The notes under the pieces were generated by a model, which did not search any database, had not been told where the DNA came from, and saw only the letters and a program-made list of their open reading frames with translations. Shown here in pieces: positions 1-14,820 of a DNA stretch of 30,179 nt. A program made the position numbers and the translations under genes. How positions within the stretch are numbered: position 1 is the stretch's first letter; the number at the start of each line of letters is the position of its first letter. The DNA is from an uncultured Bacteroidota bacterium (GTDB taxonomy: Bacteria; Bacteroidota; Bacteroidia; Chitinophagales; UBA8649): assembly GCA_937139485.1 (NCBI GenBank), contig CAKZQD010000018.1, forward strand, positions 1 to 30,179, given 5' to 3'.

Positions 1-396
1 GTTTGCCTTACCAGCTTTGCAAATTTTGTCATATAAACATAAGAAGCATCTACATCGCCTTTCATTACCAATGCTTGTATTGAATTAAGCAAATTGAAAA
101 TAAAATGCGGATTCATTTGAGATTTCAAAGCTTTTAAGTTGGAAACGGCCAATTCGTTTTTTGTAGATTCTTCAAGTTTTAGATAGGCTTCGTCTAGTTT
201 TGTTTTTTGAGTACGAATGAGTTTTAATTTATTGAAAATGTAAACAGAAAATAATCCAATGAGTAAAGCAATAATTCCTGCGGCAAACATACCTAGCCTA
301 GTTTTTTGTTTTTGCTGTTCGGCAAGTTCTAGTTTTTGTTGGTTTTTAAGATCGTCTATTTCTTTTTGCTTTTCGTACTGAAATTCCGACTCAAAC
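1..396. repeat. Large dispersed repeat: copy of the kinase coiled-coil/TM/His_kinase coding segment, nt-identical by eye to 4061-4436; the repeat continues off the window
   Basis: Read side by side from gtttgccttaccagctttgcaaattttgtc through cttttcgtact. I found no mismatches, but this was done manually. Confidence 0.8.
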
Positions 397-1571
397 CTTA
401 TTGCAGCATTTACTTCTGCATCATTATACATTTTTTCAAACAAAACAAAATATTTATGATAAATTTCATTGGCTTTTTTATACTCTCCTGTTTTTACATA
501 TATTTTATTTAAAAGTAATGATGCTTGTCTTGTTCTATTTTTATCATTTACTAAAGGTAATAAATTATACGCCTCCTCTGCATATTTTTTCGCTTGCTTA
601 TAATTCTCTTGTTTAAAGTAAAAACTTGCAATATAGTCTAGACTTAAAGCTGTTAAATCATGAAATTCAGTTTCTTTGCTCATCTCTAAAGCCTTAAATG
701 TTAATTCTAAAGCTTTTTCACTATCTCCTTTAATATTATAAATAGATGCAATTGAGGAATATGCATAACCTAAATCATCTGGATTATCATTGATTTTAAA
801 GTTTAAAAGAGCAGAATCACAATACAATAGACCTAAATCAAGGTTTTCTTCCAAAACAACAACGGATGCTAAACTAATATATTCATATCCTATTCTAGAA
901 TAATCATTTCCCTTCTTAGCTATATTAAGTGCTATGTTATGGTTTTTTTTTGCTTCTACAAACGAATAGGTCATCGTTTGTATGTATCCTATCTCATCAT
1001 AATTTAATGCTATTTCCGTATGATATTCTTTACTATTGCTAAAATATTTTATAGATTCTTTGAATAAATCTATAGCTTCAGAGGTAGTTCCAGAATTTAT
1101 CTGCCAAGATCCTAAATTAGTCAAGGTCTTAGCAATATATATACTATCATTTATGTCTTTAAAAAGTTCTAATGCTTTTTGAGTAATTAATTTAGAGGAA
1201 TCTTCTAGACCTATTCTTTTAAGGTATTTACCTAGTTGTAGGTTTAAAATACCTTTATATTTTAAGAATGAATCGTCTTTAATGAGTGTTTTTTCTTCAA
1301 AAGAGAATGCTTGAGTAAAAGCAATTGTATATTTATCTTTTAAGTTTTTATTAAAGACATTATTAATTAAGTAATCTAATTTTTTAAATTTTGTAATTGG
1401 TTCTACATTATTATAATCTTTTAATACACTATCTAGTAAAATTTTGTCGTGAGGATGTGTCTTTTCAAGAATCAAAGAATCTATCAAATAAAATTCTTTA
1501 TCTGCAAAATTTTGAGCTGAAATATTAGAAATAGAAATGAATAAAAAGAATATAGTCTGTAATGTTTTCAT
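1..1571 (-). CDS. TPR-repeat periplasmic-sensor histidine kinase, LytS/YehU type (paralog 1); partial, the C-terminal catalytic core continues beyond the window start
   Basis: ATG is the reverse complement of 1569-1571, 19 nt downstream of the stop of the next kinase gene. The product starts with a signal-peptide-like MKTLQTIFFLFISISNISAQ. The in-frame translation I checked reads KEFYLIDSLILEKTHPHDK, parallel to DKDFYLIDSLEINK of paralog 3. Nt 1-396 are by eye identical to 4061-4436 and encode EYEKQKEIDDLKNQQKLELAEQQKQ, a TM helix, and [15 protein letters not shown]...NPHFIFN. The ORF track missed it because it has no stop inside the window. Confidence 0.7.
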   Translation of the reverse strand, partial: MKTLQTIFFLFISISNISAQNFADKEFYLIDSLILEKTHPHDKILLDSVLKDYNNVEPITKFKKLDYLINNVFNKNLKDKYTIAFTQAFSFEEKTLIKDDSFLKYKGILNLQLGKYLKRIGLEDSSKLITQKALELFKDINDSIYIAKTLTNLGSWQINSGTTSEAIDLFKESIKYFSNSKEYHTEIALNYDEIGYIQTMTYSFVEAKKNHNIALNIAKKGNDYSRIGYEYISLASVVVLEENLDLGLLYCDSALLNFKINDNPDDLGYAYSSIASIYNIKGDSEKALELTFKALEMSKETEFHDLTALSLDYIASFYFKQENYKQAKKYAEEAYNLLPLVNDKNRTRQASLLLNKIYVKTGEYKKANEIYHKYFVLFEKMYNDAEVNAAIRFESEFQYEKQKEIDDLKNQQKLELAEQQKQKTRLGMFAAGIIALLIGLFSVYIFNKLKLIRTQKTKLDEAYLKLEESTKNELAVSNLKALKSQMNPHFIFNLLNSIQALVMKGDVDASYVYMTKFAKLVRQ

Positions 1572-1590
1572 TTAATTGTTAGGTTTGTTA

Positions 1591-2330
1591 CTAAAAAACT
1601 TGCTTAAAAGGAATATAAAGTTTCACTTGTGTAGCTACAAATATATCATTTTCAAATACATCTTCATATTTAAAACCAAACTCGCCTTTATAAGTCTCGC
1701 TTAATATTTTAAAACGTTTTTCTATGGCTTTGGTAGAAAAAGATTCGTGTTTTGAGCCTTGCCTTGCTTTTATTTCTTTAGACTTTGCTCTTCCAATACC
1801 GTTATCTGTAATGGTACAAATGATTTTATCTTTTTGTTCAAACTCTATTTTTAGGGTTTTTTTCCCAGCTTTGTGCAGCAAACCGTGTACGAGTGCATTT
1901 TCTATAAATGGTTGTATTAAAAGTGGTGGAATTTCTATGCCTTCTATATCGTTATCTATTATTTTGTATTCAAAATCTTTTGAGAAACGCAATTTTTCTA
2001 AATCAAGATATAATTTCAGTAAATCTATTTCGTCTTCTAGTTCTACTAAATCTGCATCTGAAAAATGTAATGTTTGCCTTACCAGCTTTGCAAATTTTGT
2101 CATATAAACATAAGAAGCATCTACATCGCCTTTCATTACCAATGCTTGAATAGAATTGAGCAAATTAAAAATAAAATGCGGATTCATTTGAGATTTCAAA
2201 GCTTTTAAGTTGGAAATGGCTAATTCATTTTTTGTAGATTCTTCTAGTTTTAAATAGGCTTCGTCTAGTTTTGCTTTTTGGCTACGAATCAGTTTTAATC
2301 TGTTGAAAATAAATGCAATTAGTAAAGAAA
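1591..2330. repeat. About 95% identical copy of the kinase catalytic-core coding segment (compare 3577-4330)
   Basis: Protein differences are limited to a few patches: [62 protein letters not shown]. Nucleotide similarity decays near 2300-2340. Confidence 0.75.
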
Positions 2331-3558
2331 CAATTCCTGCAAAAACCAAAGCAAACCAACTAATAGTTTTACTTCTTTTTGCTTTTTCATCGGCTAATAA
2401 ACTTTGAGATTCTGCTAAAATTTTGCCTTGTTTGTATTTATCTGTTTCATATTGCGTTTCTAAATTGGCAATAATATTCAAATTCTCTGATTTTTGAATA
2501 CTATCCGTAAAATTATGGTATTTGTTGAGTGCTATATTGGCTTTTTTATATTGCTTTGAATTTTGGTAAAAACTACTTTTTGCATACAGATAGTCTTCAA
2601 TAATTTCCATATCTTGATTACCTTTTACAAGTATTTCTAATTCATCAAAATATAGTTTTGCTTTAGAAATATTATTTTCAATAGAATTAATAATTACTAA
2701 ATAATTTAAAGAACGAATGATGGCATTTTTGTGTTTAAGTTCTCTGCCAAGTTTTAGCTGTTTTAAAAAATATGTTTTAGATTTCTGATAATCTTTCATT
2801 AAGTAGTAAGAAAAGCCCATTTCGTCATAGTTAAGTGTTAAACTTGTTATGCGATTTATTTTTTTATTTATTTCGATAGCTTTTGCAGTAAAAATGATTG
2901 CTGAATCATATTTTTGTAATCTATTATAGTAATAGCCTAAACTTGAATAGTTGGCGGCGTTACAATGATTGTAGTAAGATTCATCTAAGGAGTCGCAATA
3001 ACTTAATGCCAAAAGGGTATATTTTATTGCTTCTTCTTTTTGATTTTGAATTTCGTATAGAGAAGCTATTCCGCCATAACAAGCAACTACAGCAGAATAA
3101 AGTTTTGTTTTTTCAGCTATTTTTAATGTTTCAAAATAATAAGCTGTTGCGTTTTTGTAATCACCTTTATTTTGATAAAGGTTAGCAATTTTTGCAGTCA
3201 TAGACAGTAAAGCAGGAGTATAGCCCAATGCTTTTCCCATTGTTTCTGCTTCTTTTAAAATAATTAATGCAGAATCTACTTTGCCTTTTTCTCTCAGCAC
3301 AAAGGCATATTCTTTTATGTATTGCATTATGTGTGTTGTGTCTTTAAGGCTACGGGCTAATTTTTCGCCTGAGACAATATATTTTAAATGCTTTTCTTTA
3401 TCTACACTTCGGTAATAACTGCATAAAGACATTTCGGTCTTCATCTTTATAGTGTCATTACTTGTGGTTTTCAATACTGTTTCTAGAGAGTCTATATTTA
3501 TTTGTTGAGCTTGAAGGCTCGAAACAAAAGCAAATAGTAGTAAAAAGAGGCATTTCAT
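1591..3558 (-). CDS. TPR-repeat periplasmic-sensor histidine kinase, LytS/YehU type (His_kinase PF06580-like plus HATPase_c), paralog 2
   Basis: 655 aa. N-terminal signal peptide [18 protein letters not shown]. About 370 aa of TPR-like Y/A/L-rich repeats. Single [22 protein letters not shown]. Cytoplasmic coiled coil. [13 protein letters not shown] motif (LytS/YehU His_kinase signature) and HATPase region TITDNGIG...GEFGF. Confidence 0.85.
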
Positions 3559-3576
3559 AAATTATTTGATTATTTT

Positions 3577-4436
3577 TTAAAAAACTTGTTTAAAAGGAAT
3601 ATAAAGTTTCACTTGTGTAGCTACAAATATATCGTTTTCAAATACATCTTCATATTTAAAACCAAACTCGCCTTTATAGGTTTCGCTCAATATTTTAAAA
3701 CGTTTTTCTATGGCTTTGGTAGAAAAAGATTTGTGCTGAATATCTTGCCTTGCTTTTATTTCTTTGGCTTTTGTTCGCCCTATTCCATTGTCTGTAATAG
3801 TACAAATAATTTTATCTTTTTGTTCAAACTCTATTTTTAAGGTTTTTTTCCCAGCTTTGTGCAGCAAACCGTGTACGAGTGCATTTTCTATAAATGGTTG
3901 TATTAAAAGTGGTGGAATTTCTATGCCTTCTATATCGTTATCTATTATTTTGTATTCAAAATCTTTTGAGAAACGCAATTTTTCTAAATCAAGATATAAT
4001 TTCAGTAAATCTATTTCGTCTTCTAGTTCTACTAAATCTGCATCTGAAAAATGTAATGTTTGCCTTACCAGCTTTGCAAATTTTGTCATATAAACATAAG
4101 AAGCATCTACATCGCCTTTCATTACCAATGCTTGTATTGAATTAAGCAAATTGAAAATAAAATGCGGATTCATTTGAGATTTCAAAGCTTTTAAGTTGGA
4201 AACGGCCAATTCGTTTTTTGTAGATTCTTCAAGTTTTAGATAGGCTTCGTCTAGTTTTGTTTTTTGAGTACGAATGAGTTTTAATTTATTGAAAATGTAA
4301 ACAGAAAATAATCCAATGAGTAAAGCAATAATTCCTGCGGCAAACATACCTAGCCTAGTTTTTTGTTTTTGCTGTTCGGCAAGTTCTAGTTTTTGTTGGT
4401 TTTTAAGATCGTCTATTTCTTTTTGCTTTTCGTACT
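3577..4436. repeat. Kinase-core repeat unit. 4061-4436 is identical to 1-396, and 3577-4330 is about 95% identical to 1591-2330
   Basis: Direct comparison of sequence blocks. The identity to the window-start copy extends further 5-prime (through the coiled-coil and TM coding region) than the identity to copy 2, suggesting recent gene conversion or duplication. Confidence 0.8.
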
Positions 4437-5643
4437 CATATTTTAGCCCTACTTTTAGTGCTTCTTTTTTGTTGCGATTGTATTTATATTCATCTTTTGT
4501 TTCGTAGTAAAGCTTTAAGGCTGTTATTTCCTTGTTTTTTTGTCCTAAACTGGCGTATATTTCACTTGCCAGTTGTGCAGATTGAATAATTCTATCTATT
4601 TCATTTAGTTTTTTAGATATTTTTAAAGAATTTTCAATTTCCTTTTCTGCCTTTTTATTTTTTCCTTTTAAGTGTAAAAACCGAGCAGAAAAATATAATC
4701 CTAATGCCTCAAACTCTTTCAAGTTTCGTTTTTTAGATAAACTAATCATTTCATTAATTAGCGTTTCTGACTGGTCAATACTGTCTTTATTAAAATAATA
4801 ATCAAGCATTATATGATTTGCTCTGTTTATTTGATATGCGTCGTTATTTTTTCCAATGAGTTTTTTTCCTTCTTTGGCGGCTAAATATGCCAATTTTTCT
4901 TCTTTTTTATAATTATAAATATCTGCTTTTGTAATATACAATTGCCCTTTTACTGCTGGATCTGCATTTTCAGCTAGTTGATTTATTGCATTATCTAAAG
5001 ATTTTATTGCCCGTTCTATATCTATATTTTCTTTCTGAATAGAAGCTATGTTTCTCAAAATAGTTCCTATAGACATTGCATCATTTAAGGCTTCTGCTAA
5101 AATTAAGGCTTCATTGAAATTTTCTAAAGCCAAAACTATATTTCCTTTGCTTGTATATATTGTTGCTTTGGCATTGTAAAGCTGTGTCACCCAAAAATTT
5201 TCATCTATTTCTTTAAACAATTCTAGTGCCTTGGTATAGTTTGCTAAAGCTGAGTCGGTTTTTAAACTTACATCGTAAGTGTAACCAAAAATACCTAAAG
5301 CCATTGCTTTGTAGAATTTATACTTTTTAATTTCTCTACTGTTTTTTGTGGTCAACAACCCCTTATTTGCTTTATTGTACAAAAAAAAATTATAAGGCTT
5401 CCATACTTTTTCGTCCCAACAGTTTTCTACTATTGCTGTAATAAACGATAAACGACTAGAATCGTATTCTGCTTTATGATATTGCGTTAAAAGGCTATCT
5501 AAAATTACTTTTTCTTGCGCAGAAACTTTATTTATTTCTAAAGAATCTATTAAGTAAAAATCTTTATCGCCATAGTTTTGTGCAGAAAGTTGAATTAAAA
5601 ATAAAAACGAAATTAGGAATAATATAAATTTATATGTGTTCAT
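3577..5643 (-). CDS. TPR-repeat periplasmic-sensor histidine kinase, LytS/YehU type, paralog 3
   Basis: 688 aa with the same architecture as paralog 2: signal peptide MNTYKFILFLISFLFLIQLSAQ, long TPR-like sensor region, TM GMFAAGIIALLIGLFSVYIF, NPHFIFN His_kinase motif, HATPase_c. The C-terminal 250 aa are about 95% identical to paralog 2 and are identical, where visible, to paralog 1. Confidence 0.85.
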   Translation of the reverse strand: MNTYKFILFLISFLFLIQLSAQNYGDKDFYLIDSLEINKVSAQEKVILDSLLTQYHKAEYDSSRLSFITAIVENCWDEKVWKPYNFFLYNKANKGLLTTKNSREIKKYKFYKAMALGIFGYTYDVSLKTDSALANYTKALELFKEIDENFWVTQLYNAKATIYTSKGNIVLALENFNEALILAEALNDAMSIGTILRNIASIQKENIDIERAIKSLDNAINQLAENADPAVKGQLYITKADIYNYKKEEKLAYLAAKEGKKLIGKNNDAYQINRANHIMLDYYFNKDSIDQSETLINEMISLSKKRNLKEFEALGLYFSARFLHLKGKNKKAEKEIENSLKISKKLNEIDRIIQSAQLASEIYASLGQKNKEITALKLYYETKDEYKYNRNKKEALKVGLKYEYEKQKEIDDLKNQQKLELAEQQKQKTRLGMFAAGIIALLIGLFSVYIFNKLKLIRTQKTKLDEAYLKLEESTKNELAVSNLKALKSQMNPHFIFNLLNSIQALVMKGDVDASYVYMTKFAKLVRQTLHFSDADLVELEDEIDLLKLYLDLEKLRFSKDFEYKIIDNDIEGIEIPPLLIQPFIENALVHGLLHKAGKKTLKIEFEQKDKIICTITDNGIGRTKAKEIKARQDIQHKSFSTKAIEKRFKILSETYKGEFGFKYEDVFENDIFVATQVKLYIPFKQVF

Positions 5644-5766
5644 TTTGTGTTAGTTTAAATGTGTTTTAAGCTTTACTTGTTTTGTGTTTAATCAATGAAT
5701 AAAAGTGTAATTTTCATTATGCTAAGCCAATGGTAAATTTAATGTTTAAAATATTTATCAAAGACA

Positions 5767-5796
5767 AAAGCCATAGTGTTTTTTTACTATGGCTTT
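5767..5796. terminator. Hairpin (11-bp perfect stem aaagccatagt / actatggcttt, T-rich loop) between the peptide genes and the kinase operon; possible terminator or attenuator for the minus-strand peptide transcript
   Basis: Perfect inverted repeat read from the sequence. On the minus strand it is followed by a moderately U-rich tract, not a strong T-run. Confidence 0.45.
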
Positions 5797-5819
5797 ATAC
5801 TTATACTAAAAGATGATTA

Positions 5820-5948
5820 TTATAATAATTCTGGTTTTCCTCTAACAGAACTTGCAGAACGTTTTGTTCCTTTTCCGTTAGTTCCACCTTTTACGGCTTT
5901 TAAGTGTACAATTTTTTTCTCTTCAAATTTTATACTTATCTTTTTCAT
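5820..5948 (-). CDS. Small gene 1 of 3: 42-aa double-glycine-leader peptide precursor MKKISIKFEEKKIVHLKAVKGGTNGKGTKRSASSVRGKPELL
   Basis: ATG is the reverse complement of 5946-5948; TAA stop is the reverse complement of 5820-5822; 129 nt. It is part of a 166-bp tandem repeat. The leader KIVHLKAVKGG fits the LSxxELxxIxGG-type double-glycine leader. It is below the 60-aa cutoff of the ORF track. Confidence 0.55.
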   Translation of the reverse strand: MKKISIKFEEKKIVHLKAVKGGTNGKGTKRSASSVRGKPELL

Positions 5949-5985
5949 GATTTTTATTTTTTAGTTTATTAATAATAGTTTGTTT

Positions 5986-6114
5986 TTATAAAAGCTCTGG
6001 TTTTCCTCTAACAGAACTTGCTGTTCGTTTCGTTCCTTTTCCGTTAGTTCCACCTTTTATGGCTTTTAAGTGTACAATTTTTTTCTCTTCAAATTTTATA
6101 CTTATCTTTTTCAT
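5986..6114 (-). CDS. Small gene 2 of 3: 42-aa double-glycine-leader peptide precursor MKKISIKFEEKKIVHLKAIKGGTNGKGTKRTASSVRGKPELL
   Basis: This is the internal Met of the 77-aa track ORF 5986..6219. That ORF's N-terminal extension overlaps gene 3 out of frame, so the real gene is the 42-codon unit. Versus copy 1, six codons change: four are synonymous and two are conservative (V/I, S/T). Confidence 0.55.
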   Translation of the reverse strand: MKKISIKFEEKKIVHLKAIKGGTNGKGTKRTASSVRGKPELL

Positions 6115-6151
6115 GATTTTTATTTTATAGTTTGTTAATAATAGTTTGTTT

Positions 6152-6280
6152 TTATAAAAGTTCTGGTTTTCCACTAGCAGAACTTGCAGAACGTTTTGTT
6201 CCTTTTCCGTTAGATCCACCTTTTATGGCTTTAAGGTTTTTAATTTTTTTGCTTTCTAAATTTTTAAATGTCTTTTTCAT
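6152..6280 (-). CDS. Small gene 3 of 3: 42-aa double-glycine-leader peptide precursor MKKTFKNLESKKIKNLKAIKGGSNGKGTKRSASSASGKPELL
   Basis: ATG is the reverse complement of 6278-6280; TAA stop is the reverse complement of 6152-6154; 129 nt. It is the most divergent copy but keeps LKAIKGG, the NGKGTKRSASS core and the GKPELL end. Confidence 0.5.
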   Translation of the reverse strand: MKKTFKNLESKKIKNLKAIKGGSNGKGTKRSASSASGKPELL

Positions 6281-6346
6281 AATAACTTGTTGTTTTTTTG
6301 ATTATGATATAAATCTATTTACATTTTAAACGATTAAAAAAAATAG

Positions 6347-6379
6347 TTCATTAACAGCACTTTTTTTTCATTAACAGCA
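6347..6379 (-). promoter_or_regulatory. Perfect 13-bp direct repeat pair: TGCTGTTAATGAA, 7 nt, TGCTGTTAATGAA (minus strand), 66 nt upstream of the peptide-3 ATG; candidate LytTR-family response-regulator binding site and peptide-operon promoter
   Basis: Plus-strand ttcattaacagca occurs at 6347-6359 and at 6367-6379, a 20-bp centre-to-centre spacing. The repeats contain a CTGTTAAT core resembling AgrA/ComE-type half-sites, which are direct repeats with about two-turn spacing. A possible -7 box TAGATTTA lies downstream. Confidence 0.5.
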
Positions 6380-6507
6380 AAAAAGTAGTTTTTGAAATAA
6401 AAAAACACAACTAAATAGATACATGTGTTTTAAAACTAAATAATATTTAAATGTATAGGAAAAGCCTTAAAGCCTTGAGGGAATTGTATAAAACAAACTC
6501 AGTAAAA

Positions 6508-8556
6508 TCAATCTTTAGGATACTCAATTCTGATATGATAAATACTCGCAAGCATTTTTTTGAACACATCTTTACATCTTGATATTTCAGCAAAAGTAAT
6601 ATTCACGTTGTCAAATTGACCTCTGTTTTTTTGATAATCTATAATGCTATCTACCAAATTGCTCAAACTTTCGTGTGTAGGATTTTTTAAACTTCTAGAT
6701 GCCGCTTCTACACTATCTGCCATCATTAAAATAGCGTGTTCTTTTTTAAATGGCGCTGGGCCAGGATAGCAAAACATATCTTCGTCTATAACTTGGTCTG
6801 CATTTAGTTTGGCATGCATTCTATAAAAATATTCTACACGAGTGGTTCCGTGATGTGTTTTTATAAACTCTATAATTTGTAGAGGTAAACCATTTTTCTT
6901 AGCCAACTTTACACCTTCGGTTACGTGTGCTATAATTATTTTGGCACTTTCTTCATAGCTTAATTTCTCGTGAGGATTTTCTTCTGGAAACTGGTTTTCT
7001 ATAAAATATATACGATGTTCCATTTTTCCAATGTCGTGATATAAAGCACCAACTTTTACCAATAATGAATTTGCTTTTATTTCAGAAGCCGCCGCCTCAG
7101 CCAAATTGGCAACCTGAAGAGAATGCTGAAACGTACCAGGTGCTTCTAAAGACAATCTTTTTAAAAGTGGCTTGTTCAAATCTGTATATTCTACCAAAGA
7201 TATATCTGAAAGTAAACCAAATATTTTTTCAAAGAAAACAATAAGAGGATATGCTAAAAAAGTTAGAAATACATTTAATGCCAAATATGCTATTATACCA
7301 TAATTTATAGAGGTAAACGTAGCACCTTCTATTAAAGATATACCAACAAATGAAAGTAAATATGCTACAAAAATAAGTCCAATGGCTTTAAAAAACTGCG
7401 ACCAATAACGAACATTTTTATTACCATAAATAGCTACAACACCAGCAACCAATTGTATAAACAAAAAGCCAAAAACTTTTGGTACTAATAAGCCTGCCAA
7501 CAATATAATAGCCAAATGAACATAAAGAGCCGTTTCTCTTTTAAAAAACGCTCGTAGTATTATTGGTACTATAGTTAGCGGTATAATATATATGGCATTT
7601 TGACTATAATTTAAAAATATAGCAACAAGAAATAAAGAAATATTTATAAGTAAAAATATAAGCAAAAACTGCCTAAGGCGTTTAAATATATATGTTTGAT
7701 ACAAAAACAAGTAAAAAGTAAGAATAGAAATAATAATAGCAACCAACAAAAAATAACCAATATTCATGGCGTTCATTTGTTTGTTGTTGAGCACCTGTTC
7801 AGAATATTTTAATTTGTATGATTCTAGTTTTTGAAACTTAGAAGCATCTACTATTTCGCCTTTACCAATAATTTTTTCGCCTTTTTTTACTAAACCATTA
7901 GTTTTAGAAACTTCTTCAAGTTTTTTAGCTAGTAGCTTATTGTTTAGCTCTTTGTCATAAATTATATTTGGCGTAATACTTATCTTTATAATAGATTTTA
8001 GAATATTGTTCTTTTCGTCAGATCCAAAATTATTTTCATTGATAAGTTTTTTTACTTCAGCAATACTGTAAAAATTGCTACTAGGTTTTCTTGTGGCAAC
8101 ATTGTTATTTTCTACTACAACTATGTCTTCCATACTTTTTTTATCTATAAGTCCTTTACTATAAATTTTCTGTATGAATTGTTTTCCTTCTTCAAAAATA
8201 AATTTCTTTTCTATAAAACTTTCTTCTACAGAATCTAATTGAATAAAACGAGCATCAAAAAGTTTTTGATATTTAGAAAACACCAGAGAGTCGTTGTTTT
8301 GAATAATATAGTGTTTTAAATGATTGGTTCGCACTTCATTTTGCCCAGCTAAAAAATCTTCATCTGCTTTTAGAATAGCAAAATCGTAAGGAGAAAATAA
8401 TTCTTTATATTGCCAAGGTTTTCCTTTTTCAAAATCGAAACTAATAGTGTTTGTTTTTGGAATAAGCCAAAAAATAAACAAGACACTCGCAAACGCCAAA
8501 CTGAATTGCAAAAATTGTTTGGTTTTATTACCTAAGTCTTTCCAAAAACTACTCAT
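6508..8556 (-). CDS. 7TM receptor with extracellular domain and intracellular HD hydrolase domain (7TMR-HD / HDIG family, YqfF-like)
   Basis: 682 aa. N-terminal TM, large extracytoplasmic region, about 7 hydrophobic helices, and a C-terminal HD domain with LYHDIGK. No GYP motif was seen. Confidence 0.8.
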   Translation of the reverse strand: MSSFWKDLGNKTKQFLQFSLAFASVLFIFWLIPKTNTISFDFEKGKPWQYKELFSPYDFAILKADEDFLAGQNEVRTNHLKHYIIQNNDSLVFSKYQKLFDARFIQLDSVEESFIEKKFIFEEGKQFIQKIYSKGLIDKKSMEDIVVVENNNVATRKPSSNFYSIAEVKKLINENNFGSDEKNNILKSIIKISITPNIIYDKELNNKLLAKKLEEVSKTNGLVKKGEKIIGKGEIVDASKFQKLESYKLKYSEQVLNNKQMNAMNIGYFLLVAIIISILTFYLFLYQTYIFKRLRQFLLIFLLINISLFLVAIFLNYSQNAIYIIPLTIVPIILRAFFKRETALYVHLAIILLAGLLVPKVFGFLFIQLVAGVVAIYGNKNVRYWSQFFKAIGLIFVAYLLSFVGISLIEGATFTSINYGIIAYLALNVFLTFLAYPLIVFFEKIFGLLSDISLVEYTDLNKPLLKRLSLEAPGTFQHSLQVANLAEAAASEIKANSLLVKVGALYHDIGKMEHRIYFIENQFPEENPHEKLSYEESAKIIIAHVTEGVKLAKKNGLPLQIIEFIKTHHGTTRVEYFYRMHAKLNADQVIDEDMFCYPGPAPFKKEHAILMMADSVEAASRSLKNPTHESLSNLVDSIIDYQKNRGQFDNVNITFAEISRCKDVFKKMLASIYHIRIEYPKD

Positions 8557-8670
8557 AGTACTGTAAAAATTAAAAATTTCGTGCTAATTTACTTAAATTT
8601 GCGCTGCGAAAAGCACAAATGCTTGTGTTTTAGCTTTATTACTAATTTAATTTCAAAAAATAAATAAAAT

Positions 8671-9846
8671 ATGAAAGAAGTATATATCGTTTCTGCAGTA
8701 AGAACACCTATAGGAAGTTTTATGGGAAGTTTATCAACTGTTTCTGCATCAAAACTAGGAGCAGCAGCTATTAAAGGAGCTTTAGCAAAAGCTGGCTTAG
8801 ACACTAAGCACGTAGATGAAGTATTTATGGGAAATGTACTTAGTGCAAATGTAGGACAAGCACCAGCTAGGCAAGCTGCTATTTTTGCAGGCATTAGCGA
8901 TAAAACACCTTGTACTACCGTAAATAAAGTATGTGCTTCTGGTATGAAATCTATTTCTTTGGGCGCACAGTCTATTATAGCTGGCGACAATGAGTGTGTT
9001 GTAGTAGGCGGAATGGAAAATATGTCTTTAGTGCCACACTACGTAAATGGAAGAAAAGCCGTAAAACTTGGAGACATTAAAATGGTAGACGGTATGATGA
9101 AAGACGGTCTTACAGATGTTTACAACAAAGTGCACATGGGGGTGTGTGCAGAAAAATGTGCAACAGAAAACAATATTACAAGAGAAGATCAAGATGCTTT
9201 TGCTATAGAATCTTACAACAGATCTGCTAAGGCTTGGACAGAAGGCAAATTTGCAGAAGAAGTAGTGCCTGTAGAAGTTCCACAAAGAAGAGGCGATGCT
9301 ATAATAGTAGACCATGACGAAGAATACACAAATGTAAAAATGGAAAAAATTCCAACATTGCGTCCAGTATTTGACAAAGAAGGAACCGTAACAGCAGCAA
9401 ACGCTTCTACACTAAATGATGGTGCTTCTGCACTTATTTTAATGAGTAAAGAAAAAATGGATGAGCTTGGTTTAAAAGCAATAGCTAAAATAGTAAGCTA
9501 CGCAGATGCTGCACACGAACCAGAATGGTTTACAACAGCACCTACACCAGCGGTAAACAAGGCCTTGAAAAAAGCAAACTTAACAACAGCAGATATTGAT
9601 TTTTGGGAACTGAATGAAGCATTTGCAGTTGTTGGAATTGCAAATACTAAAAAACTAGGTTTAGACCCAGCAAAAGTAGATGTTAACGGTGGAGCAGTTT
9701 CTTTAGGACATCCACTAGGAAACTCTGGTTCTAGAATTATAGTTACGCTTCTAAACGTTTTAAAGCAAAACGGTGGTAAAAGAGGCGCAGCAGGAATTTG
9801 TAATGGTGGCGGAGGTGCTTCTGCTATGGTTGTAGAGTTGGTTTAA
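8671..9846 (+). CDS. acetyl-CoA C-acetyltransferase (thiolase II)
   Basis: 391 aa. MKEVYIVSAVRTPIGSF, active-site region NKVCASGMKS, and C-terminal GICNGGGGASAMVVEL are all typical of biosynthetic thiolases. Confidence 0.9.
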   Translation: MKEVYIVSAVRTPIGSFMGSLSTVSASKLGAAAIKGALAKAGLDTKHVDEVFMGNVLSANVGQAPARQAAIFAGISDKTPCTTVNKVCASGMKSISLGAQSIIAGDNECVVVGGMENMSLVPHYVNGRKAVKLGDIKMVDGMMKDGLTDVYNKVHMGVCAEKCATENNITREDQDAFAIESYNRSAKAWTEGKFAEEVVPVEVPQRRGDAIIVDHDEEYTNVKMEKIPTLRPVFDKEGTVTAANASTLNDGASALILMSKEKMDELGLKAIAKIVSYADAAHEPEWFTTAPTPAVNKALKKANLTTADIDFWELNEAFAVVGIANTKKLGLDPAKVDVNGGAVSLGHPLGNSGSRIIVTLLNVLKQNGGKRGAAGICNGGGGASAMVVELV

Positions 9847-10033: not shown

Positions 10034-10957
10034 ATGAAAAACTTACTATTTTTACTTGTTATAGTGTTTTTTGGGTGTCAAAAGTATGAATCTGAAGTGC
10101 TTTTAACACAAGAACAGTACGACATATTGAATGAAAAAACTGATGGCGTAGTAGTTTACTTACACAAAAATCAAGTTTATAAAGTTAACGATTTAGGTCA
10201 AAATGAATCTGTAATTCCTAATACTCAAGGTGCAAGAACTGATATTTCTTTAAATTTTACTAAAAATAAAATAGCCTATTTCAACCAATATAACGAAATA
10301 GTTGTTGTAAATATAGATGGTAGCAATAAAGAAATACTATCACAGTACAATGCTATACATTTTGAGTGGTCTAAAAAAGAAGATGTACTTTTTATTTTAG
10401 AAACCAACAAGGATAAGTTAAGTTCTTATGGCACACCAAGCAATTTTACTTCACCAATTTTTGCTGCTAATATTAATGTTTTGAATTTTTGTGTTTCGCC
10501 AAATTATTTGGTAGCTTATTCTGCTATTGTATCACATTCGCCGTATTCTGATTTGCTTTATGTTAAAGATGGAGACGACACAAAATACTTAGAGTCTTTT
10601 AATTCTGGCCCACCACTTTATAATTCAACGCCAACTAAGTTTAGCACTATTGAATTTACTTCTGATGAAAAACTATATGGAGCCTACATCAAAGATGCTT
10701 ACTATTTATATTCATTTCAGTTTGACCCTATTTCACAAAACCTAAGCGATAACGATAATAATGAGGGTTTTAATGAACAATGGACTTTTGATGTAAGAGA
10801 TGATTTAAATGACGTTTTAAAAAATACTTTTCTTTATGATGAAAACATAGGCTCAGAAAGCTTTAATATTTATAGATATAGACAAAATAAAGAAATAAGA
10901 AAAATAACTGAATTTGCTAATCTTAACAAGCCAATTATTTTTGATTGGAAAAAGTAA
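10034..10957 (+). CDS. hypothetical lipoprotein
   Basis: 307 aa. Lipoprotein signal MKNLLFLLVIVFFGCQ. N- and Y-rich, probably beta-rich. No motif I can assign. Confidence 0.5.
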   Translation: MKNLLFLLVIVFFGCQKYESEVLLTQEQYDILNEKTDGVVVYLHKNQVYKVNDLGQNESVIPNTQGARTDISLNFTKNKIAYFNQYNEIVVVNIDGSNKEILSQYNAIHFEWSKKEDVLFILETNKDKLSSYGTPSNFTSPIFAANINVLNFCVSPNYLVAYSAIVSHSPYSDLLYVKDGDDTKYLESFNSGPPLYNSTPTKFSTIEFTSDEKLYGAYIKDAYYLYSFQFDPISQNLSDNDNNEGFNEQWTFDVRDDLNDVLKNTFLYDENIGSESFNIYRYRQNKEIRKITEFANLNKPIIFDWKK

Positions 10958-10969
10958 GGCAATTCACCT

Positions 10970-11344
10970 TTGGCTCGTCTAAAAAATAAACAAAACAAAA
11001 TGAACAAAATAAAATCTTGGAAAACACTTGATTCAATAAATCAATTGGAAGAAATAAAAGAGACTTCAAATACTAAAACGCAGATACTTTTTAAGCATAG
11101 CGTAACTTGTGGCATTTCAGGTCACGCTGAGTTTAAACTAGAATCTGACTGGAATTTTGAAAACGAAAACTTTGATTTTTATTATTTAGATTTGCTCGCA
11201 AACAGAGCCGTTTCTAATGAAATAGCAAGTATGTTTCAAGTAACACACCAATCGCCACAAATATTAATTATTAAAAACGGTAAAGCTACAGCACATTTTT
11301 CTCATCAAGCTATAAGTGTAGATAGAATAAAACAAGCTTTGTAA
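10970..11344 (+). CDS. small thioredoxin-fold protein, YtxJ/DUF2847-like (bacillithiol-system type, TCxxS motif); the start may be the ATG at 11000
   Basis: About 115-124 aa. It contains HSVTCGIS, resembling the TCPIS motif of YtxJ-type monothiol proteins. The family assignment is from memory and was not searched. Confidence 0.5.
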   Translation: MARLKNKQNKMNKIKSWKTLDSINQLEEIKETSNTKTQILFKHSVTCGISGHAEFKLESDWNFENENFDFYYLDLLANRAVSNEIASMFQVTHQSPQILIIKNGKATAHFSHQAISVDRIKQAL

Positions 11345-11362: not shown

Positions 11363-12940
11363 TTAGTTTTTAAAAGTTATAGTTATATACCTTAGTTTTC
11401 CTCTATTTGTTGTTTTATAAAATTGATGAATTAATTTGCCGTTAAATACAATCAAACCCGTTTTTTCTAGGTTTGGCTTTGCTGCTAAGTTGTTATTAAC
11501 AACTAAATTTATATTTTCTTTGCTTAAAAGCTGTTTTTGAGAACCAGGAAAAAGTTTTAAACCACCAAACTTATCTTCAAAAGGAGATAAGCAAATAATG
11601 ATATTTATATTGTCTTGTTTTTGTTCGAAAGGCTTCGAAAAAGACTCTAAAGTTTCAACATAAGTCGCCTTTTCAATTTCAAACTTTTTATTCAAACTTT
11701 TTACTATTTTGGTAAATAATTCACAAAATATGAGCTCTTCTATTCTTGGATGAATAGACAATAAATTTTCTATTACAATTTGCTTTTCTTGAACTAAGTT
11801 ATGCTCTTTTTTATGTATTTGAATTAGTGCTTCTAGTTTTCCAATGTTTCGTTTTGGAAAAACTTGATTGTAAATATTATAGCCTTTATATTCATATTTT
11901 TTAAACTTGTTTTTAAGATTTTCTTCACTTATTTCCAAGTTATATAAATCTAAAGCACCTTCTATTCTACTTAAAATATTTTTTCTAAGCCTTTCTGGTT
12001 GCAGTACTTTAAGACCATCGCCAAAACCAAGCAGTTTTTTTTCTAACTCAAAATTATGTTGTACATGCATAGAAAAAGTATAGCCAAAATGATTTTTTTC
12101 TATGGTTTTTTGAGATTTATGCAGCGGTTTGGTTTCTACATAAGGTGCGTGCAAATGGTTTACAAAAAACACAACTTCCTCTACTTTTAAACCCGGACTC
12201 ACCGAAACACCAATAGCGTTTTCGTAATAAGTTTTGGCGTTAAAATTCTTATTTTCTTTAAATTCAGTAGCAGACATCTTTAAACTAATAATTCTATCTA
12301 TTGCTAAATTCATTATGGCATCGCCTTTATTTTTTCTTCCTATTAAAAACCAACGATTGTTAAATTCTTTGAGCAAATAAGCGTGAAATATAAAAGAGGC
12401 CGCTTTTCTAGCCTTAAAAGATTGGTAAGAAACTTCAATCGCTTTTTTTTGTATAATACTTTGATATAAAAAGTCTAAATGTTGAAGCCCTTTGAGGTTT
12501 TCATTTTTTTCAAAATCTATAACAGGTTCTGTATGTGTCTTTTGCGAATAAATTTGATCTTCCAGTTTCTGAACCATTCCGCTCAAATCATCAAAATGAG
12601 AAAAACCTTGAAACTGCTTTAAAAAAGCAACAGCTTCGCCTAGTTTATTCAAGTCTTGGTCAGAAAGAGGAATGTTGGTTATAGAATATTCAGCATCTTC
12701 ATAAGTATAATACTTTCTTTCTAAAACAATAATCGGTGCATTATAACCCAACTTATTACTCCGCATCATTTGAATATCTGCTTGTACAGTTCGTTTACTT
12801 ACGCCATCAATTCCTTCAAACTCATACAAAGCATCGCTACAAGCATCTATTAAATCTTCAAGCGTCCATTTTCTAAACCTGTTTTGTAGGCAGTTGTCTA
12901 TGGTTTTGTATCGGATGAGGGCGTTTTTATTTATTGCCAT
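11363..12940 (-). CDS. WYL-domain transcriptional regulator (N-terminal HTH, WYL, WCX-like region) with an additional ~180-aa C-terminal domain of unknown function
   Basis: 525 aa. N-terminus MAINKNALIRYKTIDNCLQNRFRKWTLEDL is typical of Bacteroidota WYL regulators. WYL signature AIEVSYQSF...FIFHAYLLKEFNNRWFLIGR...LAIDRIISL. The C-terminal part ...FGGLKLFPGS...GLIVFNGKLIHQF...GKLRYITITF is beta-strand rich. Confidence 0.7.
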   Translation of the reverse strand: MAINKNALIRYKTIDNCLQNRFRKWTLEDLIDACSDALYEFEGIDGVSKRTVQADIQMMRSNKLGYNAPIIVLERKYYTYEDAEYSITNIPLSDQDLNKLGEAVAFLKQFQGFSHFDDLSGMVQKLEDQIYSQKTHTEPVIDFEKNENLKGLQHLDFLYQSIIQKKAIEVSYQSFKARKAASFIFHAYLLKEFNNRWFLIGRKNKGDAIMNLAIDRIISLKMSATEFKENKNFNAKTYYENAIGVSVSPGLKVEEVVFFVNHLHAPYVETKPLHKSQKTIEKNHFGYTFSMHVQHNFELEKKLLGFGDGLKVLQPERLRKNILSRIEGALDLYNLEISEENLKNKFKKYEYKGYNIYNQVFPKRNIGKLEALIQIHKKEHNLVQEKQIVIENLLSIHPRIEELIFCELFTKIVKSLNKKFEIEKATYVETLESFSKPFEQKQDNINIIICLSPFEDKFGGLKLFPGSQKQLLSKENINLVVNNNLAAKPNLEKTGLIVFNGKLIHQFYKTTNRGKLRYITITFKN

Positions 12941-13177
12941 TTTGAAATTTTTCTATAAAAATAACATTTATTTTTTACTACGCAAAAACACTGCGCACCA
13001 CCAAAACTATATTTGCATTATCAATATGAAAACGTTGATGATAGTTCATTAAAAAATACATCGATAAGATGTCAAGATACGTTTCGAGAGAAACAAAAAT
13101 GCTCTAAAAAATATAAGGTGTTTCTGTATAGCACCACTTTATTTTCAGAAATTCTGAAAAATATGATGATATTTTTT

Positions 13178-13330
13178 ATTCGGCACACGAATGTGTTGTA
13201 GGTTCGATTCCTACCTCTTTTTACGAAGAGTAACTCAATTGGTAGAGTAATTCCCAGACTAGAATCGTCTATAAATGTTCGCTACACTATCACTGTAGAA
13301 TGCAAAACTCAAAATTTTGCCTTGGAGAAG
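13178..13330 (+). other. tRNA-like fragments in permuted order, not an intact tRNA. T-arm gtagg-ttcgatt-cctac at 13198-13214; then ctctt/aagag helix; then canonical D-arm ta-actc-aattggta-gagt at 13231-13248; then an anticodon-arm-like ctaca-ctatcac-tgtag at 13282-13298
   Basis: Canonical GGTTCGATTCC T-loop and U8-A9 / A14 / GG18-19 / A21 D-loop features were read on the plus strand. The order is 3-prime half before 5-prime half, and no cloverleaf can be completed. See findings. Confidence 0.3.
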
Positions 13331-13719
13331 TTATAGTCGTCTTCTTTAAAAAATCGACTAGCATTGAAGAAACAGTATCTATTTAATTGGTTTTTTTGCT
13401 AAAGTTTCGACTTTGCTTTAAAACAATCGGTTTAGTGCCAGAAAATTTATCTGCAAACTTTTAAGTTTTACAATAATTTGGTTTAAAAACAAGTCTTTAA
13501 GCTTTTGCTTTTAGGTCTTTTTTGCAAATTGAATTTGAATAAAATAACAAAGCAAGCACATTTATTTTCCGCACTAAAAAGGTAATTGAATGCTACTGTT
13601 TCTTTTTAAAAAGATAAACGCGTCATTCCTACGCAGACAGGAATCTCTAATATCGAAGAAGAGATTTCTTTCAACAAAGAATTGACGGAATAATATAAAA
13701 ATTAAAAAACAAAGAAATT

Positions 13720-14820
13720 ATGAAAAGAATAAATATTAAAGAAGGTTATGTTGGATTAGTTTACAACAAAGGAAACTTCAAGGAGGTTTTAAGCAAAGGA
13801 AATTATTGGATAAACCCATTTAACGAAGTGTTTATCTATAACAAAATGAAAGAATTTACTTCAAATACAGATTTAAATATTTTGTTGCAAAATGAAAAGT
13901 TAGCTTCTATGCTTGAAATAGTAAAAGTAGCCGATTATGAAATTGTATTAAAATTTAAAGACAAAAATTTTGAGCAAATTTTAACTGCAGGAAAATATGT
14001 TTTCTGGAAAAATACTGCGAACTATAGTTTCAAAGCTATAGATTTAAGAAATACAGAAATTACTGAAGATATAGATATTGGTTTTTTGAAAAACGCTGCA
14101 ATGTATCCTTATGTAATTATGGCAAAAGTAGAAGCCAACGAAAAAGCTTTAATGATGCTTGATGGAAAATTTGATAGAATGTTAAGCGCAGGTACTTATT
14201 ATTTTTGGAAGAAAGCTAAAGCCATTACTTTGCAAAGGGTAGATATGAGAATTAAATCTTTAGAAATAGCTGGTCAAGAAATTTTGACTAAAGATAAAGC
14301 TAATTTAAGATTGACTTTTATGGCGCAGTACAAGGTAATAGATGCCAAAAAAGCCATTATGGAAAACAGCGACTATGAAAAACAATTGTACTCATTGTTG
14401 CAATTGGCAATACGTGAATTTGTAGGTACTTTGAGTTTAGACGAATTGTTGGAAAACAAAGAAGCCTTGACAAAATACGTTCAAAACACCGTAAGAGCCA
14501 AAGCACAAAAAATGGGTCTTGAATTAATAGATAGCGGTGTGAGAGATATTATATTGCCAGGCGATATGAAAGAAATTATCAATCAAGTATTGATAGCTCA
14601 GAAAAAAGCACAAGCCAATATGATAAGCAGACGTGAAGAAACTGCTGCTACAAGAAGTTTGCTAAACACAGCCAAATTAATGGAAGAAAATGCGATGCTT
14701 TTCAAATTGAAAGAAATGGAATACATTGAAAAAATTGCTGACAGAATTGGAGAAATTACAGTAAACGGAAGTGGAAATGTAGTAAAACAATTGAATGATA
14801 TTTTTGCCATAAAAAAGTAA
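13720..14820 (+). CDS. SPFH / band-7 (stomatin-HflK/C-like) domain protein with an extended, internally triplicated N-terminal region
   Basis: 366 aa. The C-terminal half aligns by eye with HflK/stomatin: QEILTKDKANLRL...TLSLDELLENKEAL...GLELIDSGVRDIILPGDMKEI...QKKAQANMISRREETAAT. The N-terminal has three similar segments: KGNYWINPF, TAGKYVFWKN and SAGTYYFWKK. Confidence 0.75.
   Translation: MKRINIKEGYVGLVYNKGNFKEVLSKGNYWINPFNEVFIYNKMKEFTSNTDLNILLQNEKLASMLEIVKVADYEIVLKFKDKNFEQILTAGKYVFWKNTANYSFKAIDLRNTEITEDIDIGFLKNAAMYPYVIMAKVEANEKALMMLDGKFDRMLSAGTYYFWKKAKAITLQRVDMRIKSLEIAGQEILTKDKANLRLTFMAQYKVIDAKKAIMENSDYEKQLYSLLQLAIREFVGTLSLDELLENKEALTKYVQNTVRAKAQKMGLELIDSGVRDIILPGDMKEIINQVLIAQKKAQANMISRREETAATRSLLNTAKLMEENAMLFKLKEMEYIEKIADRIGEITVNGSGNVVKQLNDIFAIKK

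Follow-up and report, generated by a model that had tools for sequence, protein, structure and literature searches.

The stretch of DNA analysed here, the window, comprises 30,179 nt of contig CAKZQD010000018.1 from an uncultured Bacteroidota bacterium, and its minus strand carries a tandem array of three small genes whose products have the form of peptides with a double-glycine (GG) leader. The array is preceded by a putative box for a LytTR-type response regulator (RR) and directly followed, on the same strand, by three genes for LytS-type histidine kinases (HK1 to HK3). The box and the three downstream kinases, which had gone unnoticed in the first-pass annotation, provide the most informative context of the peptide genes. 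From the comparison of sequences, it is very probable that these are genuine genes for exported GG-type peptides, and LytTR-dependent transcription of the array is likely. Our confidence in the package as a whole, an exported peptide which acts within a LytTR circuit and is probably its autoinducer, is evenly balanced. The features concerned are listed in Table 1.

Table 1. Features of the peptide locus in the window (a slash divides the leader and the core of each predicted product)
Feature	Position	Strand	Description and basis
LytTR-regulator box (putative)	6347..6379	-	Direct repeat, TGCTGTTAATGAA twice, period 20 bp
Bacteroidota-type -7 element	6310..6317	-	TAGATTTA; begins 29 nt downstream of the proximal half-site
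Peptide gene 3, at the head of the array	6152..6280	-	MKKTFKNLESKKIKNLKAIKGG/SNGKGTKRSASSASGKPELL; ORF list
Peptide gene 2	5986..6114	-	MKKISIKFEEKKIVHLKAIKGG/TNGKGTKRTASSVRGKPELL; exact sequence present as a public predicted protein from the same contig
Peptide gene 1, at the end of the array	5820..5948	-	MKKISIKFEEKKIVHLKAVKGG/TNGKGTKRSASSVRGKPELL
Intrinsic-terminator hairpin closing the peptide transcription unit	5767..5796	-	11-bp stem, T-rich tail
HK1	3577..5643	-	Pfam, hydropathy, AlphaFold2 (AF2) model, fold matches
HK2, paralogue with the HK1 architecture	1591..3558	-	Sensor 25% and transmitter 94% identical to HK1
HK3, incomplete because the contig stops at its residue 523	1..1571	-	Full length of 683 aa in the overlapping contig L004

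The three open reading frames (ORFs) each have 42 codons, start with ATG, end with TAA and follow one another at a distance of 166 bp. The two 37-nt spacers between them differ at 2 positions. This geometry, which had been described in the first-pass annotation of the window, was borne out by the ORF list and by Tandem Repeats Finder (period 166, 2.7 copies, 90% matches, score 737). The six codon differences between copies 1 and 2 were likewise found as described, four of them synonymous (ACA/ACG, CGT/CGA, GAA/GAG and TTA/CTT) and two exchanging V/I and S/T. The plus-strand ORFs at 5776-5964 and 6132-6329, which had been interpreted as mirror images of the repeat, are indeed present and are antisense shadows of the array (62-65 aa). 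Other statements needed correction. The three genes had been called un-annotated, which is true of the 60-aa ORF track only, as copies 1 and 2 are public predicted proteins from the same contig; the copies in a sister metagenome-assembled genome (MAG) are annotated as 'hypothetical protein'. The 77-aa ORF at 5986-6219 does fuse additional sequence to copy 2, but it starts with GTG and not with ATG, and it is in frame with copy 2 through the spacer and out of frame with copy 3. A host from the Flavobacteriia had also been assumed, whereas the close relatives that bear a name are all MAGs assigned to the Chitinophagales by their labels. The hairpin behind the array is the sole terminator-like site in 5500-6700 (0.3 expected), and comparable hairpins lie 3' of the arrays in L002 and L003, two assemblies introduced below. 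The calculated masses of the unmodified cores are 2086.4 Da (gene 1), 2100.4 and 1975.2 Da.

Homologous arrays were compared in a near-identical MAG contig (L001, 97.5% DNA identity), in a diverged lineage represented by two Logan assemblies (L002/L003, peptides of 42, 45 and 42 aa), in a metagenome contig from JGI (L007, two peptides of 44 aa) and in two Chitinophagales MAGs (L012/L013, peptides of 44, 42 and 44 aa). Between lineages the DNA has diverged beyond the reach of blastn, while the peptides are still 62-81% identical. Start and stop codons are kept in 14 copies from four lineages; the length changes consist of +2 or +3 codons only and fall within the leader, and the core has 20 aa in 14/14 copies. 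The Nei-Gojobori estimates between lineages gave a proportion of synonymous differences (pS) of 0.36-0.72, a proportion of nonsynonymous differences (pN) of 0.07-0.17 and an omega of 0.04-0.36, and the variable sites were distributed over the three codon positions of the array frame as 15/8/28, with the third position highest. Peptide gene 3 has first-position orthologues in L001, L003 and L013, with an omega of 0.06-0.18 against the other lineages. The earlier claim of purifying selection on the ORFs is thus borne out by the excess of pS over pN, the third-position excess and the whole-codon indels in four lineages, and the comparison with relatives, which had been proposed as a check, revealed arrays that keep the frame without any frameshift. 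On this conservation, the three ORFs are real genes. The Rfam scan of the array region and of the whole window gave no match, and no tRNAs were found.

The peptides belong to a family which we collected by profile search. Among 1.84 billion representatives, 18 clusters were found, nearly all of them with members of 38-46 aa, and a profile word search yielded about 90 members, all unnamed or 'hypothetical'. The named sources are MAGs of Chitinophagales, Saprospiraceae and Microscillaceae and one isolate, 'marine bacterium AO1-C'. When the genome contigs of 185,579 species representatives were scanned with an alignment of the peptides, 135 matches to the pattern came up but none was confirmed; the family is absent from that set. 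The leader consensus is M-K-K-S-I-K-[KN]-[LF]-E-x-K-x-[IV]-K-N-x-K-A-[VI]-K-G-G, with GG as residues 21-22 in the three window copies. All 52 leaders with a length of 22 aa contain K(-3)G(-2)G(-1); GA occurs in one family member. Positions -4, -10 and -15 are always hydrophobic (-4 is V/I in 100%); the window copies have Leu at -7, where T/L/V/I are found in the family, and -8 is Asn or His. The C39 peptidase groove docks hydrophobic residues at -4, -7 and -12 as well as Glu at -8 of the leader (PMC6363468).

The core consensus is x-N-G-K-G-T-K-[RK]-[ST]-A-S-S-A-[SR]-G-[KR]-P-E-L-L, directly followed by the stop codon, and the cores in the window fit [TS]NGKGTKR[ST]ASS[VA][RS]GKPELL. About 95 proteins could be sorted by core. 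The canonical type, with the motif xNGKGTK..S..[PA][EQ]LL, accounts for 58 of them (about 60%), in 21 (roughly a quarter) the leader is joined to an unrelated core, and 6 are of a long form in which a basic insert of about 25 aa precedes the NGKGTK...QLL module. In the canonical cores (n=58), G3, G5 and L19 are invariant, as is T6; their mean charge is +2.7 and their Kyte-Doolittle hydropathy (KD) -0.85. Cys is found in 1/58 of them, and the core has no amphipathic segment. The leader is paired with unrelated cores at several array positions in L014, L015 and L016, the three further loci described below. A conserved leader on varied cores and a neighbouring peptidase-containing ABC transporter (PCAT) are the defining traits of double-glycine leaders (PMC6363468). 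The interpretation of the N-terminal 22 aa as such a leader, already proposed in the first-pass annotation, is supported by the invariant KGG, by the unrelated cores behind the leader and by one array adjacent to a C39 transporter. A deviating entry, P0042 (71 aa), comes from an MMETSP transcriptome in the eukprot collection and combines a Sec-like hydrophobic N-terminus directly with SNGKGTKQTASKASGKPNLL, followed by 32 residues. Contaminating bacterial sequence with another type of export signal may explain this entry, as may an ORF that arose by chance or was miscalled; a genuine protein of this kind would favour a module start at xNGKGTK.

The array adjacent to a transporter is found in L015, which represents another lineage. 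Seven tandem leader-bearing genes, four with canonical and three with unrelated cores, adjoin genes for a 710-aa protein composed of Peptidase_C39, ABC_membrane and ABC_tran domains and for an HlyD_3 adaptor. The catalytic residues of the C39 peptidase (Q...DCG...H...D) are intact after extension of a miscalled start. The search for a C39 transporter outside the window, suggested in the first-pass annotation, was thus successful beside this array and unsuccessful in L004. The association having been seen in another lineage, export by this route in the organism studied here can only be inferred. The L015 cassette (1-9454) also adjoins a tyrosine integrase, a resolvase and a type I restriction-modification system, and the peptide/exporter cassette may lie on a mobile element.

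The box upstream of the array is a perfect repeat: TGCTGTTAATGAA at 6379-6367 is separated by the spacer AAAAAAG from the second TGCTGTTAATGAA at 6359-6347. It can be generalised to TGCYRTTAATGRA-N7-TGCYRTTAATGRA. No second pair of this kind exists in the window, where 0.01 would be expected at random. The consensus of the Bacteroidota -7 element, TAnnTTTG, which TAGATTTA nearly matches, spans -12 to -5 (PMC6847099, PMC9723704), which places the half-sites at about -74 to -62 and -54 to -42. The predicted transcription start lies near 6305, leaving a 5' untranslated region of about 25 nt. The 29-nt distance from the box to the -7 element was found at seven boxed promoters with a W-type half-site and in AO1-C; the element reads TAnnTTT[GA] at the arrays of three lineages, at the RR gene and at the secreted-protein genes. 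The arrays in L003 and L012/L013 have the same half-site, period and spacing on their 5' side, even though the DNA around them cannot be aligned. Matching boxes also precede a LytTR regulator gene (L004 4301-4333), a secreted LamG-like gene in two lineages (L004 5332-5364 and L002 466-498) and, in a more distant organism, a gene for a protein with the C-terminal domain (CTD) for sorting by the type IX secretion system (T9SS), located beside an HK-RR pair (L006 5047-5079). The LytTR domains of the two regulators associated with the same box, those of the window lineage and of L006, are 56% identical, versus 27-42% identity with regulators beside different repeats. Known LytTR sites consist of two 9-11-nt repeats with 11-13-nt spacers (PMC4847170), and in the pln pheromone regulon TACGTTAAT occurs twice directly 5' of the -35 element (PMC2714321); GTTAAT is common to this consensus and to the half-site of the box. 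These sequence similarities make the LytTR dependence of array transcription likely.

Some searches contributed nothing to this assignment. Scanning genome contigs with the box pattern gave one match, in a Bathyarchaeota MAG contig, which is archaeal (L008); it was rejected as an unrelated chance match, and the site itself (4355-4387) is a perfect 20-bp tandem duplication of CCCAGTGCCATTAATGAAAT. Degenerate repeats of 20-21 bp seen by eye in the distant HK/RR loci L005, L009 and L010 were not supported by the automatic search and were not used. A sigma-70 promoter scan is uninformative for Bacteroidota.

HK1 consists of a signal peptide, a solenoid of about eight tetratricopeptide repeats (TPR), a single transmembrane (TM) segment at residues 433-451 and a LytS/YehU-type transmitter (His_kinase, PF06580). 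By this topology, the TPR domains of the kinases are predicted to be periplasmic. The sensor of HK3 is 27% identical to that of HK1, while its TM and kinase module is 100% identical. The contrast between sensors sharing 25-27% and transmitters sharing 94-100% identity points to a homogenised transmitter that serves divergent inputs, and this implies that the kinases have one partner regulator in common. The kinase modules, in the window (1-5643) and in L004 (122-4159), are identical even at the DNA level over >0.8 kb. The transmitter identity looks like the result of concerted evolution or gene conversion, or of very recent domain shuffling. The contig probably ends inside HK3 because the kinase modules are repeated.

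The AF2 model of HK1 (predicted local distance difference test, pLDDT, 82.7) has a 16-helix solenoid at residues 42-366 with pLDDT >90, and one continuous helix crosses the membrane into the kinase core. The best matches of the modelled sensor in the PDB were the 8-TPR superhelices of LGN/Pins (E 7e-12, TM-score 0.64-0.74), all of them solved with an extended peptide in the groove; Rap (8rte) and NprR (5dbk) followed with E ~3e-7. According to the model, the fold of the HK1 sensor is compatible with peptide binding, yet this is generic for TPRs. A carboxylate clamp of the TPR type holding the free C-terminal ELL was considered as pure speculation and set aside; it is weakened by the non-TPR sensors of AO1-C. 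A search for bulk electrostatic complementarity between sensor and peptide did not find any.

The partner regulator is suggested by the ENA contig L004, which overlaps positions 1-1692 of the window at 99.9% and carries the full-length HK3 with 100% identity. HK3 is followed there by another kinase gene, a boxed gene for a protein with Response_reg (2.2e-20) and LytTR (1.7e-12) domains, and a boxed gene for a secreted protein. An exact look-up of the HK2 sequence returned no record.

The same association recurs in other lineages with other components. In the cultured isolate AO1-C (L016; GCA_001890965.1, MLAY01000003.1, 109-129 kb), two long-form members of the family, P0090 and P0041, are encoded between two divergent pairs of genes, each for a kinase with Reg_prop/Y_Y_Y and His_kinase (PF06580) domains and for a LytTR regulator, and T9SS-CTD cargo genes. 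One cargo gene is preceded by direct repeats of TACCGTTCACTCA with a period of 21 bp (0.13 expected), with TATATTTG 29 nt downstream, and P0090 has the upstream half-site TACCGTTCCCTCA 29 nt before TACTTTTG. In L014, three dispersed copies each have their own repeat pair of (ATG)ACAGTTTCA, spaced at a period of 21 bp, together with a TAT[CA]TTTG element, and the promoter repeat in L015 is TTCAGAAAGAAT twice. In six lineages, the GTT core and the -7 element lie 38-39 nt apart. From these recurring repeats and spacings, control by an activator that binds direct repeats looks like a property of the family, with half-sites that vary between lineages. The long-form insert of AO1-C (L016 8011-11043) is conserved and basic (FIRRGKIKKK...SFAVxA) and lies between GG and the NGKGTK module; its AxA-like end may be the mark of an additional processing event. 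The insert recurs without the module in a third copy (10343-10483), and the core of a fourth GG peptide (10876-11043) contains Cys and is unrelated.

The genes upstream of the arrays differ. In L012/L013 the neighbour is DUF423, and in L003 (1-265) and L007 (421-480) it encodes a protein ending in the T9SS C-terminal sorting domain. The intergenic DNA in L007 measures about 30 nt, which leaves no room for a box, and the peptides may therefore be co-transcribed with the cargo gene there. The 7TM-HD gene upstream of the array in the window (6508-8556) was considered as a member of the system and rejected because of this variation between lineages. Elsewhere in the window, about 780 nt at 12941-13719 have no ORF of >=80 aa and no Rfam or tRNA match; this gap is flanked by a WYL/WCX-domain gene (11363-12940, minus strand) and an SPFH/Band-7 gene (13720-14820).

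Taken together, these features are consistent with the following circuit. A LytTR response regulator would bind the repeats of 20-bp period between -74 and -42 and activate the array promoter. A C39-peptidase ABC transporter, the gene for which would lie in another part of the genome, would cleave the 42-aa precursors behind KGG and carry out the export, releasing hydrophilic, cationic and unmodified 20-mers. The peptide would accumulate outside the cytoplasm, where the adjacent kinases would sense it through their periplasmic TPR domains, either directly or via a partner, and the near-identical transmitters of these kinases would phosphorylate one common LytTR regulator. The regulator would then raise the expression of the peptide genes, of its own gene and of genes for secreted or T9SS adhesin-like proteins, which would close an autoinducing loop. 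In this scheme, we infer the binding of the regulator to the box, the cleavage at KGG and export in this organism, and the feedback of the 20-mer on the kinases. The specific assignment of the peptide as the autoinducer of the adjacent kinases is plausible from the gene arrangement, and we hold it with slightly less than even confidence.

A number of observations weigh against this reading or limit it. The core is shared by lineages that differ in box specificity and in sensor type (TPR versus Reg_prop/Y_Y_Y), which argues against direct binding to both types of sensor and would be unusual for a pheromone. No LytS-type kinase was found within the recovered DNA of L014, L015 and L007, and modules of HK, RR, box and cargo genes without a peptide gene within 10 kb also exist. 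The charges of the three sensor domains in the window (+4, +10 and -3) show that they are not acidic. Neither the 30-kb window nor L004 contains a C39 exporter. General porins do not pass a 2-kDa peptide, and the re-entry of a peptide of this size into the periplasm therefore needs explaining. Position -12 of the leader is a conserved Lys and not a hydrophobic residue. The curated HMMs for GG leaders (NCBIfam/TIGRFAM, Pfam) did not match the three copies or 23 members of the family at E<=10, so that this check, proposed in the first-pass annotation, pointed to no curated family; the leader and core therefore constitute a new family and not a part of a named one. The link to the regulator gene carries a caveat as well. 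Positions 1314-3600 of L004 correspond to the HK1 C-terminus and HK2 of the window with 1 mismatch in 2.3 kb, and the last ~560 nt of the 'fourth kinase' gene (within 1314-4159) diverge by 14% ahead of the RR gene. This kinase gene reflects either a very recent segmental duplication or a mis-join through the repeated kinase domains. As L004 may have been joined through these repeats, the number of kinases (three or four) and the contiguity of the RR gene are uncertain, and the physical linkage of the regulator to the peptide cluster is no more than probable. The functional link between regulator and array by means of the box is independent of this assembly question.

The alternative closest to an autoinducer is a regulated exported effector: the peptides would be outputs of the LytTR circuit alongside the secreted and T9SS adhesin-like proteins, for example as surface or matrix cofactors, antagonists of competitors or weak cationic antimicrobials, and the kinases would sense something else. 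We consider this less likely than the autoinducer reading, yet it is a serious rival with a good deal in its favour. The box also precedes the LamG-like and T9SS-CTD genes, so that the peptides could be one more output, and the modules without a peptide gene mentioned above point in the same direction. That the core stays constant across sensor types and boxes is more easily understood if it has a conserved target outside the cell than if it is a pheromone peculiar to each lineage. Moreover, small GG-motif proteins of cyanobacteria have a non-signal role in biofilms (PMC4997328) and toxins with GG leaders are found in Bacteroidetes (PMC6671954). On the other hand, a hydrophilic, non-amphipathic, Cys-free core of 20 aa is unlike those of class II bacteriocins and bacteroidetocins, no small hydrophobic immunity-like ORF lies beside any array, and in two distant lineages the peptide gene is the first gene behind a box beside HK-RR genes, which is the classical placement of an autoinducer. 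A precursor of a ribosomally synthesised and post-translationally modified peptide (RiPP), in which enzymes from other loci would act on Ser, Thr or Lys of the NGKGTK...S-rich core ahead of GG cleavage and export, is improbable. GG leaders are frequent in RiPP precursors (PMC6363468), and the invariant G3, G5 and T6 and the Ser/Thr-rich centre could form a recognition or modification motif. Yet at seven independent loci no gene for a radical-SAM, LanM/LanB/LanC, YcaO or ATP-grasp protein or a glycosyltransferase occurs within ~10 kb, 57/58 canonical cores are Cys-free, and the sole dedicated neighbours of the L015 array are the PCAT and HlyD genes. The first-pass annotation had argued against a heavily modified RiPP and favoured an unmodified signalling peptide, a preference that fits this absence of modification enzymes, as well as the LytTR-type box and the adjoining kinases.

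Two further explanations would make the peptide itself irrelevant. The terminator hairpin between the array and HK1 would suit an attenuator, in which translation of the small cis-acting leader ORFs and the hairpin set the read-through into the kinase genes. We regard this as very improbable, since the amino acid sequence itself is conserved, as the omega values show, and the downstream genes differ: a LamG gene follows in L002, nothing in L007, and the solitary copies in L014 have their own terminators. The modularity of leader and core and the adjacency to a PCAT also make no sense for an attenuator. Least credible of all is a non-coding tandem repeat with accidental ORFs. Short ORFs arise easily in such an AT-rich genome (30.5% GC), and the antisense ORFs might be seen as examples. 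A plain repeat of this kind is effectively refuted by the frame-specific conservation in relatives, where the third-position excess is confined to one frame and all indels are whole codons, and it does not account for ~95 homologues of one length class, for the start and stop codons kept in 14 copies or for the lack of an Rfam match.

Returning to the exported peptide within a LytTR circuit, the locus resembles by analogy the three-component systems Pln (PlnA/PlnB/PlnCD), ComC/ComD/ComE and BlpC/BlpH/BlpR in its logic, yet it is outside their kinase family. In all of them a GG-leader gene adjoins HK and LytTR RR genes; paired direct repeats, spaced by about two helical turns, lie before the -35 or -33 element at the peptide, regulator and output promoters; and export is by a C39 PCAT (here predicted for the family from the transporter beside the L015 array). 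The kinases of the Pln, Com and Blp systems are polytopic (5-7 TM) and of the HPK10/AgrC-ComD type, whereas those described here are single-pass LytS/YehU-type PF06580 proteins with a periplasmic TPR domain, or with a beta-propeller/Y_Y_Y sensor in AO1-C. Three (possibly four) sensors share one type of transmitter, the host is a diderm bacterium of the Bacteroidota with -33/-7 promoters and secreted or T9SS outputs, and the period of the box is 20 and not 21 bp. In contrast to the hypervariable pheromones of those systems, the core is conserved across lineages. The PF06580 transmitter and LytTR regulator families are the same as in E. coli YpdA/YpdB and YehU/YehT, and the site of YpdB, a direct repeat of GGCATTTCAT with an 11-nt spacer (PMC4847170), resembles TGCCATTAATGAA of the box. 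However, the E. coli kinases YpdA and YehU have 5-6 TM segments and a GAF input domain, respond to pyruvate or peptides as nutrients and have neither a GG-leader gene nor a TPR sensor.

The RRNPP regulators (Rap, NprR, PlcR and PrgX) have a TPR superhelix as receptor for short linear peptides, which is the candidate arrangement here. They are cytoplasmic, fused to a helix-turn-helix or phosphatase domain, free of kinases, and respond to Sec-exported peptides re-imported by Opp, while the TPR domains described here would be periplasmic and are fused to kinases. The likeness is one of fold only, is generic to TPRs and is surpassed by the score of LGN/Pins. Bacteroidetocins and class II bacteriocins share with our peptides the GG leader, PCAT export (predicted for our peptides) and, in part, the occurrence in Bacteroidetes (PMC6671954), but their cores of 30-60 aa are amphipathic or hydrophobic, often with a disulfide or YGNGV, and are accompanied by an immunity gene, none of which is found here. 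The cyanobacterial EbfG/PteB system is another case of multi-copy small GG-motif proteins in a diderm host; they are exported by a PCAT and serve a social function in biofilms and not that of a bacteriocin (PMC4997328). The EbfG proteins are longer matrix components and have no sequence similarity to the peptides, no LytTR box and no adjacent kinases.

For Firmicutes, pheromone circuits that combine a GG-leader peptide with a histidine kinase and a LytTR regulator are textbook knowledge. Bacteroidota genomes encode many pairs of LytS-type kinases and LytTR regulators with large TPR or beta-propeller sensors. Our literature search found for Bacteroidota no circuit of a GG peptide and LytTR, no TPR-PF06580 kinases and no LytTR control of T9SS cargo. 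It is possible, and we say so tentatively, that the system represents the first peptide-based autoinducing cell-cell signalling in this phylum, made up of a PCAT-exported 20-mer, LytS-type kinases with TPR or beta-propeller sensors, one LytTR regulator and T9SS adhesin-like outputs. The locus and its relatives provide a testable package which includes a peptide family with calculated masses, a box of fixed geometry, a regulator, sensors and a secreted or T9SS output, and AO1-C is a cultured organism in which the association is open to genetics. Should the peptides be effectors instead, they would still constitute a new family of LytTR-regulated secreted peptides, with the first LytTR regulon motif for the phylum. 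If the autoinducer reading is true, they would be the first class of ligands for the abundant, uncharacterised TPR/PF06580 kinases of Bacteroidota.

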